The translations under genes and the position numbers were made by a program. A model generated the notes under the pieces. It ran no database searches. It had not been told where the DNA came from and saw nothing but the letters and a program-made list of their open reading frames with translations. A stretch of 64,000 nucleotides of DNA, from assembly GCA_963812015.1 (NCBI GenBank), contig CAWETI010000002.1, positions 832,001-896,000 on the forward strand, written 5' to 3'. This document shows, in pieces, positions 45,172 to 50,866 of this stretch (the stretch's first letter is position 1; the number at the start of each line of letters is the position of its first letter). Origin of the DNA: an uncultured delta proteobacterium. Lineage in GTDB: Bacteria; Desulfobacterota; Desulfobaccia; Desulfobaccales; 0-14-0-80-60-11.

Positions 45172-45618
45172 TCAGGTTAAAGAGCCGGCTTTGGTCAGCA
45201 ATGCCTTGATGTGGTCTAAATATTGGAGAATTCGATGGGCCTTGGGGTCAAGATAATCAACCAATTCTGGCGGCGGTTCGCCAAAACCTCCCAGATACTT
45301 GCCGGTCAGTTCCAGGACGTCCACCCAGAGAATGTAGCAATGCCCCTGTATGGTTTTGGCAATATCCTGAGAACCTGCTTCCAGGTGCAGATCATCCCGT
45401 AATTCCCGCATGATGCCGCGGATGCAGGCAATAGCGGCCAGTAATCCGGCTCGCCCATTGGGATCGAGATTATTCGTTTCGTGGTAAAGGACTGAGCGAA
45501 CTTCCCGCCCCTGGGCCCACTCCTCGAATTTAACTAAAGCTTCGTCGAGAAGGGTGAGTGTGATCCTGATTCGGCTGCGGTGTGCCTCGCTCAGGTTTGG
45601 AATAAATTCTGCCTGCAT
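45172..45618 (-). CDS. Helical hypothetical protein in the riboswitch-led operon
   Basis: Co-oriented and closely spaced with the usp gene; AGGAAG RBS. Confidence 0.75.
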   Translation of the reverse strand: MQAEFIPNLSEAHRSRIRITLTLLDEALVKFEEWAQGREVRSVLYHETNNLDPNGRAGLLAAIACIRGIMRELRDDLHLEAGSQDIAKTIQGHCYILWVDVLELTGKYLGGFGEPPPELVDYLDPKAHRILQYLDHIKALLTKAGSLT

Positions 45619-45651: not shown

Positions 45652-46071
45652 TTACCGCACGATAAGAACGCTGCACGGGGCATGGCGGCTCACCTTTTCG
45701 GCGGTGGTGCCCAGTAAGGCCCAGACCCCGGAAAGGCCGCTGTGGCCCACCAGGATCAGGTCGAATTTGCCCTCCTTGGCCACCTCGAGGATGGTCTTGG
45801 CCGGGTGGCCTGGGCGCATGTGGGTTTTGAGCTCTATCCCGGCTTCTTTCGCCTTCGCTTTGGCGGCCTCCAGCAACTTGCCATATTGTTCATCGGCAAA
45901 CTGCTTTTCTTCCTTGACCTCATCGATGGTGCCGCTGAAGCGGGGCAGTTTTTCTTGCACCGCCAGGACCCAGAGTTCGGATTGATGAATTTTGGCGAGA
46001 GTAATTCCGGCATTGAGCGCCGTGTCAGCGCCCTTGGAGCCGTCGTAGGCCAAGAGTATCTTCTGAAACAT
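45652..46071 (-). CDS. Universal stress protein (Usp)
   Basis: FQKILLAYDGS, GHPAKTI, DLILVGHSG, LGTTAEKVSRHAPCSVLIVR. Confidence 0.93.
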   Translation of the reverse strand: MFQKILLAYDGSKGADTALNAGITLAKIHQSELWVLAVQEKLPRFSGTIDEVKEEKQFADEQYGKLLEAAKAKAKEAGIELKTHMRPGHPAKTILEVAKEGKFDLILVGHSGLSGVWALLGTTAEKVSRHAPCSVLIVR

Positions 46072-46112
46072 TTCTCCCTCCCATTATTGCGGTCTAATAG
46101 AACCTTGACCCA

Positions 46113-47318
46113 TTACTCCTCTGGCATATGCAGGAAATTTTCCGAACTGCCAATATAACGTAACGACTCACTTTCAAAAGATTGAGCCTCGTGGGGGTAG
46201 AACCAGATTTGCCCGATCACGGTGGGGATTACTGCCGAGCCGATTACCGCGGTCACCAGGAGGGAATACTGGGCCTGGGTCACGTATCCATAGGTTAAGC
46301 CGTAAAGGGCGGAGATGCTGCCGAAGGTGAGACCGGTGGACATCATGCAGGTGGTATAATTGACCTGCCGCACCGGCATTCGGAAGAGACGGCAGGTGGG
46401 CCACACCGCGGCAACTTTGGTAATCATTTTGGACCAAAACAAGGCGAGCAATACGCCGAATCCTGCTATCAGGGCAGGCAAGGACACCAAGGTGCCTGCC
46501 TTGAGAAAAAAGAACGGGGTCAACAGGGCGAAGACGATAGACCGCATGCGCAACATAATCGCTTTATTATGGACAAATAATCCCGCCACCACGATGCCGA
46601 AGATATAAGCCGGCAGCACGGCTTCACTCCGGGCCTTGACCGACAGGGCGCCTAAGGCGACGAGAACCAGGAAAATGAATTTGATTTCCGGTTCGCTCAC
46701 CCGGCCGCCCCACGCCGCAAAGACCCGGCGGCTGATAGCTGGCATGAAACACAGAACCACCGTGGTCACTACGATAAAAATCACTAGCCAGTAATCATAA
46801 TTGGCGAAGATCAGCCCCAGGGCCAGCACCGTGCCCAGGTCATTCACGAAGCACGCGGCCAGGATTAGTTTTCCCAGTTCCGTTTCATTCAACCCCGTTT
46901 CCACCATCACCGCGTAGACTACGGCCATGGAAGTGGTGGACAGGGCGATGCCGGCAATCTGGGCGGCTTGCAGACTCCATCCGGCGATGTAGTAAGCGTA
47001 GGCCATACAACCCAAGAAAGGAGCGAGAAAAGCCACGGTGCCGATGGTGAGGCTGGGGATCAACTGCTTGCGGAAGGTCTCGGGTTCTATTTCGGCGCCG
47101 GCCAGAAAAGTCAGGACTACCGAAGCAAAGCCCGCCAGGAAGTTGATCCAGGCATTGGGTTGGAAAATGGCGGAACCGAAGTGGGCTCCCAGGTTGCCGG
47201 CGACAAACCCCAGGAAAATTTCCACCAGGGCCACGGAGATGCCGATGCGAATGGAGATGAGACTGGCCAGGAATGCCAGGCCGATCCAGGCCGTCGCGGT
47301 GTACCAAACGTGCTCCAC
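46113..47318 (-). CDS. Cation:proton antiporter (CPA2/Na+/H+ exchanger family)
   Basis: GTG start after AGGAG; about 12 TM helices, LTFLAGAE, ALSTTSMAVV, ACFVNDLG. Confidence 0.88.
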   Translation of the reverse strand: MEHVWYTATAWIGLAFLASLISIRIGISVALVEIFLGFVAGNLGAHFGSAIFQPNAWINFLAGFASVVLTFLAGAEIEPETFRKQLIPSLTIGTVAFLAPFLGCMAYAYYIAGWSLQAAQIAGIALSTTSMAVVYAVMVETGLNETELGKLILAACFVNDLGTVLALGLIFANYDYWLVIFIVVTTVVLCFMPAISRRVFAAWGGRVSEPEIKFIFLVLVALGALSVKARSEAVLPAYIFGIVVAGLFVHNKAIMLRMRSIVFALLTPFFFLKAGTLVSLPALIAGFGVLLALFWSKMITKVAAVWPTCRLFRMPVRQVNYTTCMMSTGLTFGSISALYGLTYGYVTQAQYSLLVTAVIGSAVIPTVIGQIWFYPHEAQSFESESLRYIGSSENFLHMPEE

Positions 47319-47351
47319 TTTATGCTCCTGAAACCGGTGCGGGGTGTAAAT

Positions 47352-47390
47352 AAAAAAGGCCCTGACCCACACCCGGTGAGATCAGGAGCC
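47352..47390 (-). terminator. Intrinsic terminator, expression platform of riboswitch A
   Basis: GGCUCCUGAUCUCAC..GUGGGUCAGGGCC followed by UUUUUU; overlaps the aptamer 3' end. Confidence 0.8.
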
Positions 47391-47447
47391 ATCAGTGTCA
47401 TCACGGTTCGGGCAGACTCTCCTCCACCCCGGCGGACTCCATCGCCT
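47383..47447 (-). ncRNA. Fluoride riboswitch (crcB motif) A, upstream of the CPA2 antiporter
   Basis: AGGCGAUGGAGUCCGCC..AACCGUGAUGACACUGAUGGCUCCUG; P1 GGCG/CGCC, pseudoknot GGAGUC/GGCUCC; TTGACC-18-TAAGGT upstream (47459-47488). Confidence 0.85.
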
Positions 47448-47577
47448 AATTTTAGCTAACCTTAACTCCAGTTGTCCTGATTGGTCAAGAAAAATATGCA
47501 TAAAGCAGAATCTCTGGAGAGGTCTCTTTTAAAGTTGACATAGGGGCGGTTTGCGAGCGATAATTTATAATTAAAGA

Positions 47578-47633
47578 AGGCGATGAAGTCCGCCTTAATT
47601 GCCCACGGGTGCCAGGTGGGCTGATGACTTCTG
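47578..47633 (+). ncRNA. Fluoride riboswitch (crcB motif) B, upstream of the dynamin-like gene
   Basis: AGGCGAUGAAGUCCGCCUUAAUUGCCCAC..GUGGGCUGAUGACUUCUG; P1 GGCG/CGCC, pseudoknot GAAGUC/GACUUC; TATAAT at 47566-47571. Confidence 0.9.
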
Positions 47634-47661
47634 TCCATTTTAGGGGCAGAGGTTTTTTTTT
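47627..47661 (+). terminator. Intrinsic terminator, expression platform of riboswitch B
   Basis: acttctgtcc..gggcagaggt followed by a T run; overlaps the pseudoknot strand. Confidence 0.85.
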
Positions 47662-47681
47662 GCCCGATTTAAGGAAGATGG

Positions 47682-49436
47682 ATGGGAACCTATCGACAAT
47701 TTCAAGAAGCTTTGGAACATCAGCTCGTTCAGTTGAGCAAGTTTCCGGAACTGAAGGGGCCGCACCTGGCCAGGCTTATCGACAAGCTGCGGGAAAATCG
47801 CTTTAATTTGGTGATCCTGGGAGCTTTCAAACGGGGCAAGAGCACCCTGATCAATGCCCTCCTGGGTGAGCCGATCTTGCCGACGGCCATCGTCCCCCTG
47901 ACCTCGGTCGTCACCGTCTTGGGATACGGCGATCAACTAAATATCGAGGTCCGTTTTCAAAACGGGTCCCGGAGAAAAATCTCCCAGCCGGAATTGGTGG
48001 AATATATCACCGAGAAGGGCAATCCCCGGAATCAGAAGGGGGTGAGGGAAGTAGAGATCACCTTTCCCTCGGATTATCTAAAGGACGGGGTGAGAATCAT
48101 CGACACCCCCGGGGTAGGGTCGGTTTATAGCCACAACACCGAAGTGGCCTATAATTATCTTCCCCAGGTGGATGCGGCCGTTTTTGTGGTCTCGGTTGAC
48201 CCGCCGCTCTCCGCCGCGGAACAGGATTTCTTGAAAGACATCCGGGAATATGTCCACAAACTCTTTTTTGTGCTGAATAAAATTGATTATGTGGGCGCGG
48301 CCGAGCGCCAAGAGGCCCTGGAATTTACGGCCCAGACATTGCAAGCCAATTTGGGGACGGAAACATTGGCGATTTTCCCCCTTTCGGCCAAATTAGCGAT
48401 GGACGGCAAATCCAATGGCCATCCCGAACTCCTGGCAGCCAGTTTGCTCCCCGAGTTTGAAAATCATTTGCGCCAGTTTCTCTATAAAGAAAAAGGGCGG
48501 GTGTTGTTGATTTCTTGCCTCAGCGGCGCGCTTAAGACCATCACCGATTCGACCCTGGCCCTCAAGGTGGAACGTCAGGCCGGCGCCATGCCCCTGAAGG
48601 AATTGGAAGACAAGATCACCCGGTTCGACCAGGAATTGCAAGGCCTGGAAAAAGAACGGGAACTGTCTTTGCTGCTGCTGGATGGTCGGATCAAGGGCGT
48701 GATCACCGAAGTGGAGGCGGACCTCGACGCCTTTAAGAAAGAGACCATCATCAAATTACGCCGGAAGATGGAGGAGGCTTTCCAGCAAAAAAGCCAGGCT
48801 GCCGGAGATTTGCGCCAGGAAACGGAGGAAATCCTGTTTGCGGCGTTGCGGGACGTATTCACCACCTGGCGGCGACAGGAAATCGAGAAACTCTCCCTAA
48901 AATTGGCCGATACCCACCAGGATTTCGCCACCCGCATCAATGCCATCCTGGAGCGTTTGACCCAATTGACCGCCCGTATCTTTGACTTTTCTCTCAGGGG
49001 CTTTGCCGCGGAGGAAGCCTTCCCCGATCTGCGCCAATTCTGGTTCAAATTTAAGGATGAACCGGTGGGGCTGGAAATTCTTCAAATGACCGTGACCTCC
49101 CTCCTGCCCCGGGCCTTGACCAGAGGCTTGCTGCTCAAAAAGCTGTTGGAAAATGTCGGCGAATTGGTGGATAAGCATTGCGGGCGGCTGCGCTACGATT
49201 TCCACCAGCGGCTCCAGGAAATTGCCCGAGATTTCCGCCAGACCTGGCTCGCCAAGATCGACGACACTACGCAAAGCATCCGGCAGGCCCTGGACCGGGC
49301 TTGGTCCCAAAAACAGACCAGCGCCCAGACTACCGCCGAGAGAATGGGTCAGCTTGATCAAAGCTTGACCGAAATCCTCCAGGCCGAATCGCAATTATTG
49401 GCCTTGAAGGAGCAGATTGAGGAAACCTTACAGTGA
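47682..49436 (+). CDS. Bacterial dynamin-like GTPase
   Basis: G1 GAFKRGKSTLINALLG, G2 LPTAIVPLTS, G3 IDTPG, G4 LNKID, long helical C-terminus. Confidence 0.92.
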   Translation: MGTYRQFQEALEHQLVQLSKFPELKGPHLARLIDKLRENRFNLVILGAFKRGKSTLINALLGEPILPTAIVPLTSVVTVLGYGDQLNIEVRFQNGSRRKISQPELVEYITEKGNPRNQKGVREVEITFPSDYLKDGVRIIDTPGVGSVYSHNTEVAYNYLPQVDAAVFVVSVDPPLSAAEQDFLKDIREYVHKLFFVLNKIDYVGAAERQEALEFTAQTLQANLGTETLAIFPLSAKLAMDGKSNGHPELLAASLLPEFENHLRQFLYKEKGRVLLISCLSGALKTITDSTLALKVERQAGAMPLKELEDKITRFDQELQGLEKERELSLLLLDGRIKGVITEVEADLDAFKKETIIKLRRKMEEAFQQKSQAAGDLRQETEEILFAALRDVFTTWRRQEIEKLSLKLADTHQDFATRINAILERLTQLTARIFDFSLRGFAAEEAFPDLRQFWFKFKDEPVGLEILQMTVTSLLPRALTRGLLLKKLLENVGELVDKHCGRLRYDFHQRLQEIARDFRQTWLAKIDDTTQSIRQALDRAWSQKQTSAQTTAERMGQLDQSLTEILQAESQLLALKEQIEETLQ

Positions 49437-49553
49437 GGGCGCAGCTTTTGGTATAGACTAAAATTGTTTGTGAAAAAAGTAAGTTAGGCTTGACATCGGC
49501 AAGAATAACCTTACCTTTCGAGTAAATCACCTATTGATGCTAAGGAGGCGGCC

Positions 49554-49838
49554 ATGAAAGATTTTGATGAGGTTACCCGGGAAAAGGGCCTGCCCCGTGT
49601 GGGGCAGGAGGTGCGCAGCAAAAAATACGGCACGGTGTGGCGAGTCATGGAGAAAAAAGAGGTGTGGACCAATATCGAACCAGACCCCCAGACCGGCGAG
49701 ACCCGCATGCTCCCGGCTATTTATCTTTCATATTGGCAGGTCAAGGAAGGGGTGCGACCCGGCGTGGGGAAGATGATGGGCTTTGAATATACTCTCTATG
49801 ACAATACCTTTAGCGTCAATTGGGATATCGTGGAATGA
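49554..49838 (+). CDS. Small hypothetical protein
   Basis: TAAGGAGG RBS, TTGACA upstream (49491), natural composition. Confidence 0.75.
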   Translation: MKDFDEVTREKGLPRVGQEVRSKKYGTVWRVMEKKEVWTNIEPDPQTGETRMLPAIYLSYWQVKEGVRPGVGKMMGFEYTLYDNTFSVNWDIVE

Positions 49839-49965
49839 ATCGCCCTTTTCAACAATAGTCTCAGGTATTATAGTAGGGGCCAAGGCTTATGCTGGCGGCC
49901 CCTTTTTTATGGAAAAATCAGCTGGATGAGCATCACCGCCATACCCTGCGGGAGGAAGACCACCT

Positions 49966-50601: not shown

Positions 50602-50670
50602 GGGGCTCGGGATTGGGGGCTTTCGGCCCATGGTGTTTACTACAATCCTCTGCCTGCAAAAGTTTTTGCG

Positions 50671-50695
50671 GGGGCGGTTTGCGAACCGCCCCTAC
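50671..50695 (-). repeat. GTAG-family REP
   Basis: ggggcggtttgcgaaccgcccctac; a half copy taggggcggtttgcga lies at 47541. Confidence 0.65.
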
Positions 50696-50866
50696 GGCTT
50701 TACGGCAATCCCAAAGGCTCATGAACGACGGTTAGGCAATTATAGCCTGCAGAAGCCGGGAATATTTTATAATCTGCTCTTGCAACCAGACAGAAGAGCC
50801 TTATTTAATGATGAAGATTTCATGCACCCCTCGTTATTAGGGCCATTCTAAAGAAAGGCAGGTATT

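Follow-up and report, generated by a model that had tools for sequence, protein, structure and literature searches.

Can a bacterial dynamin be part of the response to fluoride? The question is raised by a 64,000-nucleotide stretch of contig CAWETI010000002.1 from an uncultured delta proteobacterium (here called the window, to which all positions refer), where an open reading frame for a dynamin-like GTPase stands behind a riboswitch element. To our knowledge, what most bacterial dynamins do in the cell is not understood, in part since the conditions that need them are unknown, and a riboswitch tie to one simple ion would supply a defined inducing condition for a dynamin subfamily and make direct experiments possible. 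The fluoride regulon as known so far consists of exporters, genes for ion and pH homeostasis, and fluoride-sensitive enzymes. A mechanochemical membrane GTPase would be a new kind of effector in it.

When analyzing the leader of the gene with Rfam cmscan, we found a fluoride riboswitch aptamer (crcB motif, RF01734) at 47570-47640 on the + strand, preceding and controlling the dynamin-like gene. The match covers positions 1-64 of the 64-position model with 48.3 bits against a gathering score of 34 (E value of 2.5e-10). The aptamer is followed by an intrinsic terminator (47626-47661, +), which consists of a hairpin at 47626-47654, also present in the minimum-free-energy fold of the leader, and a T run to 47661 that stops 20 nt 5' of the ATG at 47682. 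The first-pass annotation had placed a riboswitch and a terminator ending about 20 nt before this ATG; both are real, but the start of the element, put at 47578, lies 8 nt inside the aptamer, which begins at 47570. A promoter-like sequence, TTGACA-18 nt-GATAAT (47535-47564, +), has 11 of 12 matches and lies 5 nt 5' of the aptamer, and a ribosome-binding site, AAGGAAG (47671-47677, +), can be read from the sequence 4 nt 5' of the ATG. Consensus scans gave 4 promoter-like sites versus 2.7 ± 1.9 in shuffled sequences and 5 terminator-like sites versus 7.2 ± 3.0, neither of them significant alone. The argument for the promoter-like site is therefore its position, and the terminator call draws its weight from its position and from its conservation in relatives: a hairpin with a T run follows the aptamer tail and precedes the start codon in 78 of 90 related leaders.

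The 5' arm of the terminator, ACTTCTGTCC, overlaps the pseudoknot-forming 3' tail of the aptamer and is the same sequence, so aptamer and terminator should be mutually exclusive, as in an ON switch. Across 37 related aptamers, the 9 pairs of P1 and the pseudoknot were paired in 99.7% of cells, compared with 35 to 60% when the structures were slid by 1 to 3 columns on the same aptamers as a control. Compensatory changes on both sides were seen in five of the nine pairs and the covariation score of the aptamer pairs was reached by none of 500 shuffles, figures which overstate independence because the 37 aptamers are kin to each other. On these sequence grounds, the leader is a genuine fluoride riboswitch, and as a member of this family it would be expected to bind fluoride. 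Classical fluoride-riboswitch units, in front of crcB/Fluc, eriC-F/CLC-F, Na+/H+ antiporters, enolase, and pyrophosphatase, share the aptamer family and the terminator-based ON-switch layout, whereas the controlled gene here encodes a dynamin-like GTPase.

How often homologs carry a crcB motif upstream had been raised as the check on the first-pass reading, and the answer is that they commonly do. In 83 genomes of the order, a same-strand riboswitch lies 40 to 50 nt upstream in 53 of the 54 gene copies that keep their N terminus (50 intact and 4 broken; coordinates compared by hand), and the sole exception retains an aptamer truncated to its 5' half, which is joined to codon 11. Counted from the RNA side, 53 of 173 riboswitch matches in the order stand before the GTPase gene. 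Widening the genome search from order to class brought in no genome beyond these 83. Among GTDB loci with upstream DNA, the riboswitch is present in 17 of 18. Homologs from other families of the phylum, with 36 to 47% identity, have it in 19 of 21 cases, with different neighbours at every locus; these 21 are the stronger of 43 matches outside the order. On metagenome contigs, all 13 close homologs carry the riboswitch, as do 51 of 64 distant homologs (43 with a proximal element and 8 with one gene between), 4 of these 51 elements scoring just below the Rfam cutoff. The link is not universal: an upstream riboswitch is missing from 13 of the 64 distant homologs on metagenome contigs and from 2 of the 21 in the phylum. 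Matches to our own model upstream of L127, L136/L141, and L144/L145, which Rfam did not confirm at an E value of 0.05, were scored as none.

In a FastTree phylogeny of 106 sequences, riboswitch-bearing genes occur in all major branches and losses are scattered, with the deep branches weakly supported and long branches flagged. One riboswitch-bearing clade belongs to Actinomycetota according to NCBI records. Many of the linkage counts were drawn from related genomes and hence are not independent. Since the linkage is conserved across relatives, a chance pairing of riboswitch and gene can be excluded, and its retention over deep divergence makes it very likely that the GTPase takes part in the fluoride response. 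Induction of the GTPase by fluoride is, on the same comparative evidence, well supported.

The genome has only two fluoride riboswitches, one leading to the GTPase and the other to a divergent CPA2 antiporter-Usp operon. The second riboswitch (47376-47455, - strand; Rfam score of 38.8 bits versus 34) stands in front of a CPA2-type cation:proton antiporter (46113-47318, -), assigned by its Na_H_Exchanger domain match. The antiporter probably starts at a GTG at 47318 with AGGAGC before it; if it began at 47372, as in the ORF list, it would directly adjoin the aptamer. Downstream of the antiporter is a universal stress protein gene (45652-46071, -; Usp, 1.9e-30). No crcB was found in this genome. 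Two CLC loci are present in it. In the order as a whole, the GTPase occurs in 54 of 83 genomes versus 17 of 83 for crcB, about three times as often, so fluoride tolerance of these anaerobes may rest on mechanisms other than the textbook CrcB channel, which would be relevant to the microbial ecology of fluoride-rich sediments and to the engineering of microbes for organofluorine chemistry. In relatives, the GTPase gene adjoins or shares an operon with crcB-DUF190, Na+/H+ exchangers, Usp, MFS transporters, and enolase. No conserved neighbour with a membrane-lipid or envelope function was found at these loci, Prenyltrans-domain neighbours being present in three only.

Metal fluorides trap GTPases, and a cell might make more of a dynamin-type GTPase when GDP-bound metal fluorides (AlF4-, MgF3-) trap it; this is the logic usually invoked when a riboswitch controls enolase or pyrophosphatase. 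For enolase under a fluoride riboswitch, the portion of review PMC11139923 consulted gives this "make more of the inhibited enzyme" account. Enolase genes do lie within the same fluoride islands of relatives, and the genome holds a single further protein with Dynamin_N (741 aa), but the latter is remote kin of the GTPase, with 31% identity over 80 residues. All checkable copies of the subfamily are behind a riboswitch, including both copies in each of the four two-copy genomes. No constitutive copy was seen among the copies checked, which leaves nothing to top up. The gene is also predicted to be off by default owing to its terminator, and it is dispensable: 29 of the 83 genomes in the order lack it, and within the genus it occurs in 5 of 17. 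We consider such compensation unlikely, and we prefer to regard the GTPase as an effector made in response to fluoride.

What kind of effector it may be was addressed through its sequence and fold. The product of the gene (47682-49436, + strand) is a single-gene, 584-aa dynamin-like GTPase of the BDLP/IniA class, as judged from the ORF, Pfam, and the fold. Its Dynamin_N domain (Pfam; aa 44 to 200) scores 97.7 bits versus a cutoff of 27, with an E value of 9.6e-28. The GTPase domain (approximately aa 40 to 245; 47799-48416, +) has G1 GAFKRGKS, T74 in switch I, G3 DTPG, and G4 NKID. The motifs G1 to G4 are intact, as had been noticed before, and in an alignment of 55 family sequences the residues G47, R51, G52, and K53 (G1), T74 (switch I), D141, T142, P143, and G144 (G3), and N199, K200, and D202 (G4) are invariant. 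Contigs of four wetland metatranscriptome runs, 93 to 99% identical, match parts of the ORF, and two of them cross the stop codon; these are contigs only, and DNA carryover is possible. The cover is patchy, with the leader mostly uncovered in three of the four runs, and these gaps carry no information on transcription.

An AlphaFold2 model of the GTPase (pLDDT, 85.2; pTM, 0.68) gave Foldseek matches to IniA (7e-24) and BDLP (3e-22), with a probability of 1.00. TM-scores against the fold matches are only 0.37 to 0.45, as expected for hinged multidomain proteins. By the model and the Foldseek matches, the GTPase has a helical neck and trunk folded back on the GTPase domain. Sequence profile searches against PDB agree (BDLP, 3.2e-51; IniA, 2.8e-35), and the top fold and profile matches comprise IniA, BDLP, Campylobacter DLP1/2, SynDLP, and mitofusins. 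The named NCBIfam dynamin equivalogs all scored far below their cutoffs: DynA NF052648 with 71.4 versus 1600, CrfC NF007368 with 22.4 versus 1146, and LeoA/HP0731 NF041922 with 21.7 versus 325. By these models, the GTPase belongs to none of the named families DynA, CrfC, and LeoA/HP0731.

The tip of the helical stalk (aa 441 to 476; 49002-49109, +) is a candidate membrane-inserting loop on the basis of conservation and the model. It has a conserved aromatic triad (F453-W454-F455), followed by a basic residue at 456 and, at 474 to 477, by LLP-K/R. All 55 sequences of the family alignment have an aromatic residue at position 455 and F, L, or V at position 453. The consensus of the loop at 453 to 456 is F-[Y/W]-[Y/F]-K/R, and residues 441 to 464 were modelled with a pLDDT below 50. 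No transmembrane-like segment was found in the GTPase with the 55-sequence alignment.

The best fold match, IniA of Mycobacterium (PDB 6j72 and 6j73; Foldseek E value of 7e-24 and profile E value of 2.8e-35), resembles the GTPase in its length of about 600 aa and in having a GTPase head with a helical stalk, the tip of which is lipid facing in IniA. It is isoniazid inducible, its expression being switched on by a specific stress and not constitutive, as is predicted for the GTPase. Identity between the two is only 19 to 20%. IniA is induced by cell wall drugs via protein regulators and is encoded in the iniBAC operon with a second DLP, whereas the gene described here is a stand-alone one under a fluoride RNA switch. 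BDLP of Nostoc punctiforme (PDB 2j68, 2j69, and 2w6d) is the best profile match (E value of 3.2e-51; positions 28 to 435) and has the same class of GTPase-neck-trunk architecture, but it exceeds the GTPase by about 100 residues and carries a defined membrane paddle in place of the short aromatic loop. No link of BDLP to fluoride was found in the literature searched. DynA of Bacillus subtilis, LeoA, and CrfC share the Dynamin_N GTPase domain. DynA is reported to protect against membrane damage, a role of the sort suggested here for the GTPase; it is a fusion of two DLP units, whereas the GTPase here is a single unit.

Together, these features suggest a unit with the order promoter, fluoride aptamer, terminator, and one gene. 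Without fluoride, the terminator would form and transcription would end ahead of the GTPase gene. With fluoride, the pseudoknot would hold the 3' tail of the aptamer, the terminator would be blocked, and the gene would be transcribed. The product is predicted to be a soluble GTPase of the BDLP/IniA type, its GTPase head joined to a long helical stalk that ends in the aromatic/basic tip loop. Once induced, it may bind the cytoplasmic membrane via this loop, and its GTP-dependent self-assembly might seal, fuse, or reshape the fluoride-stressed membrane, a role akin to the envelope stress roles of IniA and DynA. It would serve the fluoride regulon on its own, next to the ion transporters and outside any fixed multiprotein machine. 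The putative membrane role draws on the resemblance to IniA, BDLP, and DynA as well as on the tip loop modelled with low confidence. We consider it moderately probable that fluoride induces a dynamin-like protein which is active on the cytoplasmic membrane and shields or remodels it when the cell is under fluoride stress. A wider proposal, offered only tentatively and one that may well prove wrong, is that single-unit GTPases of about 590 aa form a subfamily dedicated to the fluoride response in at least Thermodesulfobacteriota and Actinomycetota, to which the riboswitch was attached before their divergence, and that they are expressed only with intracellular fluoride and protect or remodel the cytoplasmic membrane. 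In lineages mostly without the CrcB channel, such a GTPase would then be a principal factor of fluoride tolerance.

Under fluoride stress, the GTPase might instead be directed at DNA, ribosomes, or another cytoplasmic target, as dynamin-like CrfC acts at the replication clamp. MutS-domain-V genes just upstream in 2 of the 21 phylum loci would fit such a role, as would the lack of a transmembrane segment and the low modelling confidence of the tip loop. However, the best sequence and fold matches are the membrane-active DLPs BDLP, IniA, Campylobacter DLP1/2, and mitofusins, the CrfC model is matched far below its cutoff, and the conserved aromatic-basic loop suits peripheral membrane insertion. 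A nonmembrane target thus seems distinctly improbable. Less credible again is the idea that fluoride itself is a cofactor. GDP-AlF4- stabilizes dynamin G-domain dimers, and GDP with a metal fluoride could lock the GTPase dimer in the transition state so that it becomes a membrane tether or scaffold only with intracellular fluoride. This would be compatible with a strict coupling of expression to fluoride and otherwise draws on general knowledge; the sequence is not distinct from ordinary DLPs, and its G motifs are canonical, so we regard a cofactor role as very unlikely.

With a membrane-protecting GTPase of this kind in the fluoride regulon, damaged or leaky membranes would have to count as a primary way, so far overlooked, in which fluoride poisons microbes. 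The first-pass reader knew of no characterized role for dynamin in fluoride resistance, and our searches agree: no report connecting fluoride riboswitches with dynamins or dynamin-like proteins was found in the literature searched, which excludes Baker et al. 2012. The matching papers published up to 2014 dealt only with eukaryotic dynamins. A dynamin-like GTPase class is not among the riboswitch gene classes listed in the portion consulted of the 2024 review PMC11139923, in the text of which the term "GTP" occurs 0 times. By title, no paper found with "fluoride riboswitch" and "GTPase" deals with this link, and PMC9971707 has "GTPase" in its reference list only. This suggests that the GTPases are a part of the microbial fluoride response for which the literature searched holds no description.

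A 148-aa helical protein encoded nearby (45172-45618, -; an ORF) had been proposed as a partner of the GTPase. Nine of the 12 genomes with its gene do have the GTPase or a riboswitch on that contig, no more than about 7 kb away. We nevertheless rejected the partner on co-occurrence and give the pairing almost no credence: of the 83 genomes in the order, 12 contain the gene and 54 contain the GTPase, 44 of these 54 lack the 148-aa protein, and it was found at 1 of 19 close loci. The gene also occurs without the GTPase in two genomes. In one of them, a congener, both riboswitches are lost and the GTPase gene is reduced to a 55-residue remnant; persistence of the 148-aa gene there suggests that it belongs to the flanking backbone and not to the fluoride island, and flanking backbone is what it looks like.

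On the other side of the GTPase gene, a conserved 94-aa protein, s94 (49554-49838, +), starts 117 nt 3' of the GTPase stop codon. It has no Pfam or NCBIfam match, and the protein atlas gave unnamed Thermodesulfobacteriota clusters only. It is probably cotranscribed with the GTPase or expressed from its own promoter, and as a candidate for coregulation it is better than the 148-aa protein. By eye, a hairpin with a T run can be seen 3' of s94 at 49876-49908.

On the plus strand, a fluoride aptamer (RF01734, 47570-47640, Rfam score of 48.3 bits against a gathering score of 34) stands in front of a 584-codon ORF (47682-49436) encoding a dynamin-like GTPase. A promoter-like site (TTGACA-18-GATAAT, 47535-47564) lies 5 bases 5' of the aptamer, and a terminator hairpin (47626-47654) overlaps the aptamer 3' end and is followed by a nine-T run to 47661. 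The ORF starts twenty bases past the T run, with a ribosome-binding site (AAGGAAG) in between, as the first-pass annotation had described when it placed the end of the riboswitch and terminator about 20 nt before the ATG. The left arm of the hairpin is the conserved tail of the aptamer, and this tail would either pair within the pseudoknot, when the aptamer is bound to fluoride, or form the terminator. This layout is that of a classical transcriptional ON switch. Taken alone, consensus promoter and terminator scans gave nothing above shuffled sequence, so the case for both elements rests on their position and conservation.

We examined 37 related aptamers for signs of function. The four P1 and five pseudoknot pairs are 99.7% paired, while slid structures used as a control pair at 35 to 60%. 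Compensatory changes occur in five pairs, with loop/tail combinations such as GAAGU/ACUUC, GGAGU/ACUCC, and GGGGU/ACCCC. In 78 of 90 leaders, a hairpin and T run separate the aptamer tail from the start codon; in leaders from Actinomycetota, the tail pairs with the ribosome-binding site instead. Judged by this covariation, the aptamers look functional. In the window, a genuine fluoride aptamer and a terminator that competes with it precede the gene for a canonical dynamin-like GTPase.

The first-pass annotation had placed the GTPase under fluoride riboswitch control and raised the question of how often its homologs have a crcB motif upstream: it is found in 53 of 54 copies in the order, 19 of 21 loci across the phylum, and 51 of 64 distant metagenome loci. 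Among the 83 searched genomes of the order, 64 have at least one fluoride riboswitch (173 matches in total) and 54 have the GTPase gene. The 54 copies containing the N terminus (50 intact and 4 broken by stops or contig ends; four more fragments without an N terminus were left out) were compared by hand with the riboswitch coordinates, and in all but one a same-strand aptamer ends 40 to 50 nt before the start; as these genomes are kin, the count shows retention, not independent origin. In the single exception, the first half of the aptamer is fused to codon 11, a deletion. With about 2 riboswitches per 3.3-Mb genome, we estimate a chance of the order of 1e-5 that any particular 100-nt stretch of one strand contains one. 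Four genomes of the order have two copies of the gene, both preceded by a riboswitch, and we saw no constitutive copy in the order. Of 19 GTDB loci, 18 have upstream DNA, and 17 of these have the riboswitch.

A search of 1.84 billion representative proteins returned the order's cluster at 77% identity and, below 45% identity, a large family of ~590-aa proteins with 2,328 representatives at an E value of ≤1e-30. Matches at an E value of ≤1e-40 were found in 52 genomes of a 401-genome phylum sample, 43 of them outside the order. We fetched the 21 best outside-order loci (36 to 47% identity, at least 11 family codes; the remaining 22 are weaker matches outside this count), and the 19 positive loci have a same-strand aptamer 40 to 300 nt upstream. 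One of the other two has an IS transposase immediately upstream. The flanking genes of the 21 loci share nothing, and what stays constant is the riboswitch-gene module.

We searched the best 80 of 607 metagenome relatives with a covariance model made from the aptamers identified here and checked weak cases with Rfam. Among these 80, all 13 close homologs (≥70% identity) have the riboswitch. The 64 distant ones (34 to 54% identity, at least 120 nt of upstream DNA) have it within ~300 nt in 43 cases (one just under the Rfam cutoff) and further upstream, with one gene between, in 8 (three just under the cutoff); it was not detected in 13. The intervening genes encode an MFS transporter, Prenyltrans-domain proteins (2), Usp, an HTH protein, DUF6062 proteins (2), and a CBS protein. 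Another locus has a riboswitch-crcB-DUF190 operon directly 5' of the riboswitch-GTPase unit. The coupling is kept down to ~35% identity and across unrelated genomic contexts.

In a FastTree phylogeny of 106 full-length sequences, riboswitch-bearing genes occur in all major branches. Genes without a riboswitch are mostly isolated sisters of genes with one, apart from one small clade that has no proximal riboswitch. Given weak deep support and flagged long branches, the tree reads only as an old link repeatedly lost, with no dated event. Relatives of one riboswitch-bearing clade (loci L143, L147, and L151) are named Actinomycetota by NCBI, so the link spans at least two phyla. The small Prenyltrans proteins have an alpha-alpha toroid domain (L125:442-1389, L140:505-1377, and L068:3346-4140); in two metagenome loci their genes separate the riboswitch from the GTPase gene, and in one genome such a gene lies just past the GTPase gene. 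They may hint at a lipid-related function. The DUF6062 proteins (L152:603-1307 and L154:768-1421) lie between aptamer and GTPase gene in one clade, whose aptamer is weak (~32 bits, just under the Rfam cutoff).

The window's own genome (99.86% complete, 5.72% contamination) has only two fluoride riboswitches, which stand back to back on opposite strands. The second (RF01734, 47376-47455, minus strand, 38.8 bits, gathering score 34) heads a gene for a CPA2-type Na_H_Exchanger (46113-47318, start taken as the GTG behind AGGAGC), followed by genes for a universal stress protein (45652-46071) and a 148-aa protein (45172-45618), all on the minus strand; the antiporter-Usp unit, with its riboswitch, spans 45652 to 47455. 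The genome has no crcB and two CLC loci (L022 and L023/L024). Only 17 of the order's 83 genomes have crcB, though 64 have fluoride riboswitches, and it is missing in 43 of the 54 GTPase-bearing ones. In one family, crcB and the GTPase gene are divergent, each with its own riboswitch. Riboswitch-adjacent genes in relatives' islands also include those for formate-tetrahydrofolate ligase, crcB with DUF190-CBS, two Na+/H+ exchangers, and enolase.

The 148-aa protein, suggested earlier as a partner of the GTPase, does not hold up in that role. It occurs in 12 of 83 genomes and 1 of 19 close loci, and it persists in a congener (L167, G012:C121:382-4040) which has no fluoride riboswitch and whose GTPase gene is reduced to its final 55 codons (836-1000), between the 148-aa and 94-aa genes. 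The fluoride island has been cleanly deleted here, and the 148-aa gene belongs to the flanking backbone. Two further congeners carry at this site either a riboswitch plus crcB or a riboswitch plus two 94-aa genes without the GTPase.

A better candidate is the 94-aa protein (49554-49838, plus strand), whose ORF starts 117 nt beyond the stop codon of the GTPase gene; a hairpin with a T run, identified by eye, comes after it (49876-49908). Of 28 close loci with enough downstream DNA, 23 have the ORF in this position. The protein is highly conserved, with a mean column identity of 79% (32 sequences), and matches no Pfam or NCBIfam family. Paralogs directly follow other fluoride riboswitches in six loci (e.g., L010:1225-1503, L015:991-1269, L018:810-1088, and L104:983-1261), often ahead of formate-tetrahydrofolate ligase. 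Because few distant GTPase homologs have it nearby (3 loci), it looks like a separate small fluoride-regulon protein and not an obligate partner. In three islands (L010:1089-3724, L015:867-3707, and L018:686-3370), the order is riboswitch, 94-aa paralog, and formate-tetrahydrofolate ligase, with enolase genes in the same islands.

The GTPase matches Pfam Dynamin_N with 97.7 bits (cutoff of 27) and scores far below the cutoffs of the named NCBIfam dynamin families DynA, CrfC, and LeoA/HP0731. In an alignment with 54 diverse relatives, P-loop residues G47, R51, G52, and K53, T74, DTPG (141-144), and N199/K200/D202 are invariant, which bears out the intact G1-G4 motifs reported for it. An AlphaFold2 model on this alignment is confident (pLDDT 85.2, pTM 0.68) and predicts that very long helices follow a GTPase head. 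The top Foldseek matches are IniA (7e-24) and BDLP (3e-22), ahead of the Campylobacter DLP1/2 pair, SynDLP, and mitofusins; sequence-profile matches agree (BDLP, 3.2e-51; IniA, 2.8e-35). The sole poorly modelled stretch, residues 441 to 464, is the distal stalk end, where the family conserves an aromatic triad (F453, W/Y454, and F/Y455), a basic residue, and an LLP-K/R motif. A sequence scan found no transmembrane-helix-like stretch, and the conserved loop fits a candidate peripheral membrane-inserting loop. The genome encodes one other Dynamin_N protein (741 aa), very distant from this one.

We propose that fluoride would turn the GTPase gene on and that the protein would use its aromatic tip loop and GTP-driven assembly to act on the cytoplasmic membrane, by which cells might better survive fluoride. 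IniA and DynA are stress protective. The membrane reading is favored because the nearest structural relatives are membrane active, these two protect against stress, and the surrounding regulon is mostly membrane transport. The main alternative, that the GTPase is overproduced to offset its own trapping by metal fluorides, seems unlikely, since every copy is off by default, no constitutive one was seen, and many congeners can do without the gene. A cytoplasmic target is somewhat less probable still, and metal fluoride serving the GTPase mechanism as a locking ligand is the most improbable of the three.

The riboswitch and the protein class are each known; new are their union and the subfamily it defines. 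Our literature search found no paper joining a fluoride riboswitch with a dynamin, although an earlier tabulation in the founding paper (Baker et al. 2012) is possible. Riboswitch-associated classes named in a 2024 fluoride-resistance review (PMC11139923) include exporters, Na+/H+ antiporters, pyrophosphatase, haloacid-dehalogenase-type enzymes, enolase, and formate hydrogen lyase, with chorismate mutase a common neighbor of fluoride-exporter genes; the term "GTP" is absent from the text of that review. The riboswitch-GTPase unit is real and conserved, a branch of the fluoride regulon that is apparently undescribed.

In four wetland metatranscriptome runs, contigs 93 to 99% identical cover 14 to 24 of the 30 bins of 47300-49500; they are assembled, come from relatives with possible DNA carry-over, and carry no level, strand, or end information. 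Two contigs run from within the GTPase ORF over the stop codon to the end of this stretch. In run X1, the bin with the top summed contig depth is 47374-47447, the antiporter's minus-strand riboswitch leader, though contig depth cannot rank parts. A palindromic element, GGGGCGGTTTGCGAACCGCCCC, lies at 50669-50698 between the histidine phosphatase and BCAM0308-family genes, and a partial copy (47543-47559) lies within the GTPase promoter spacer. With 49 and 13 matches in two congeners (G006 and G012, respectively), it looks like a dispersed REP-like repeat.
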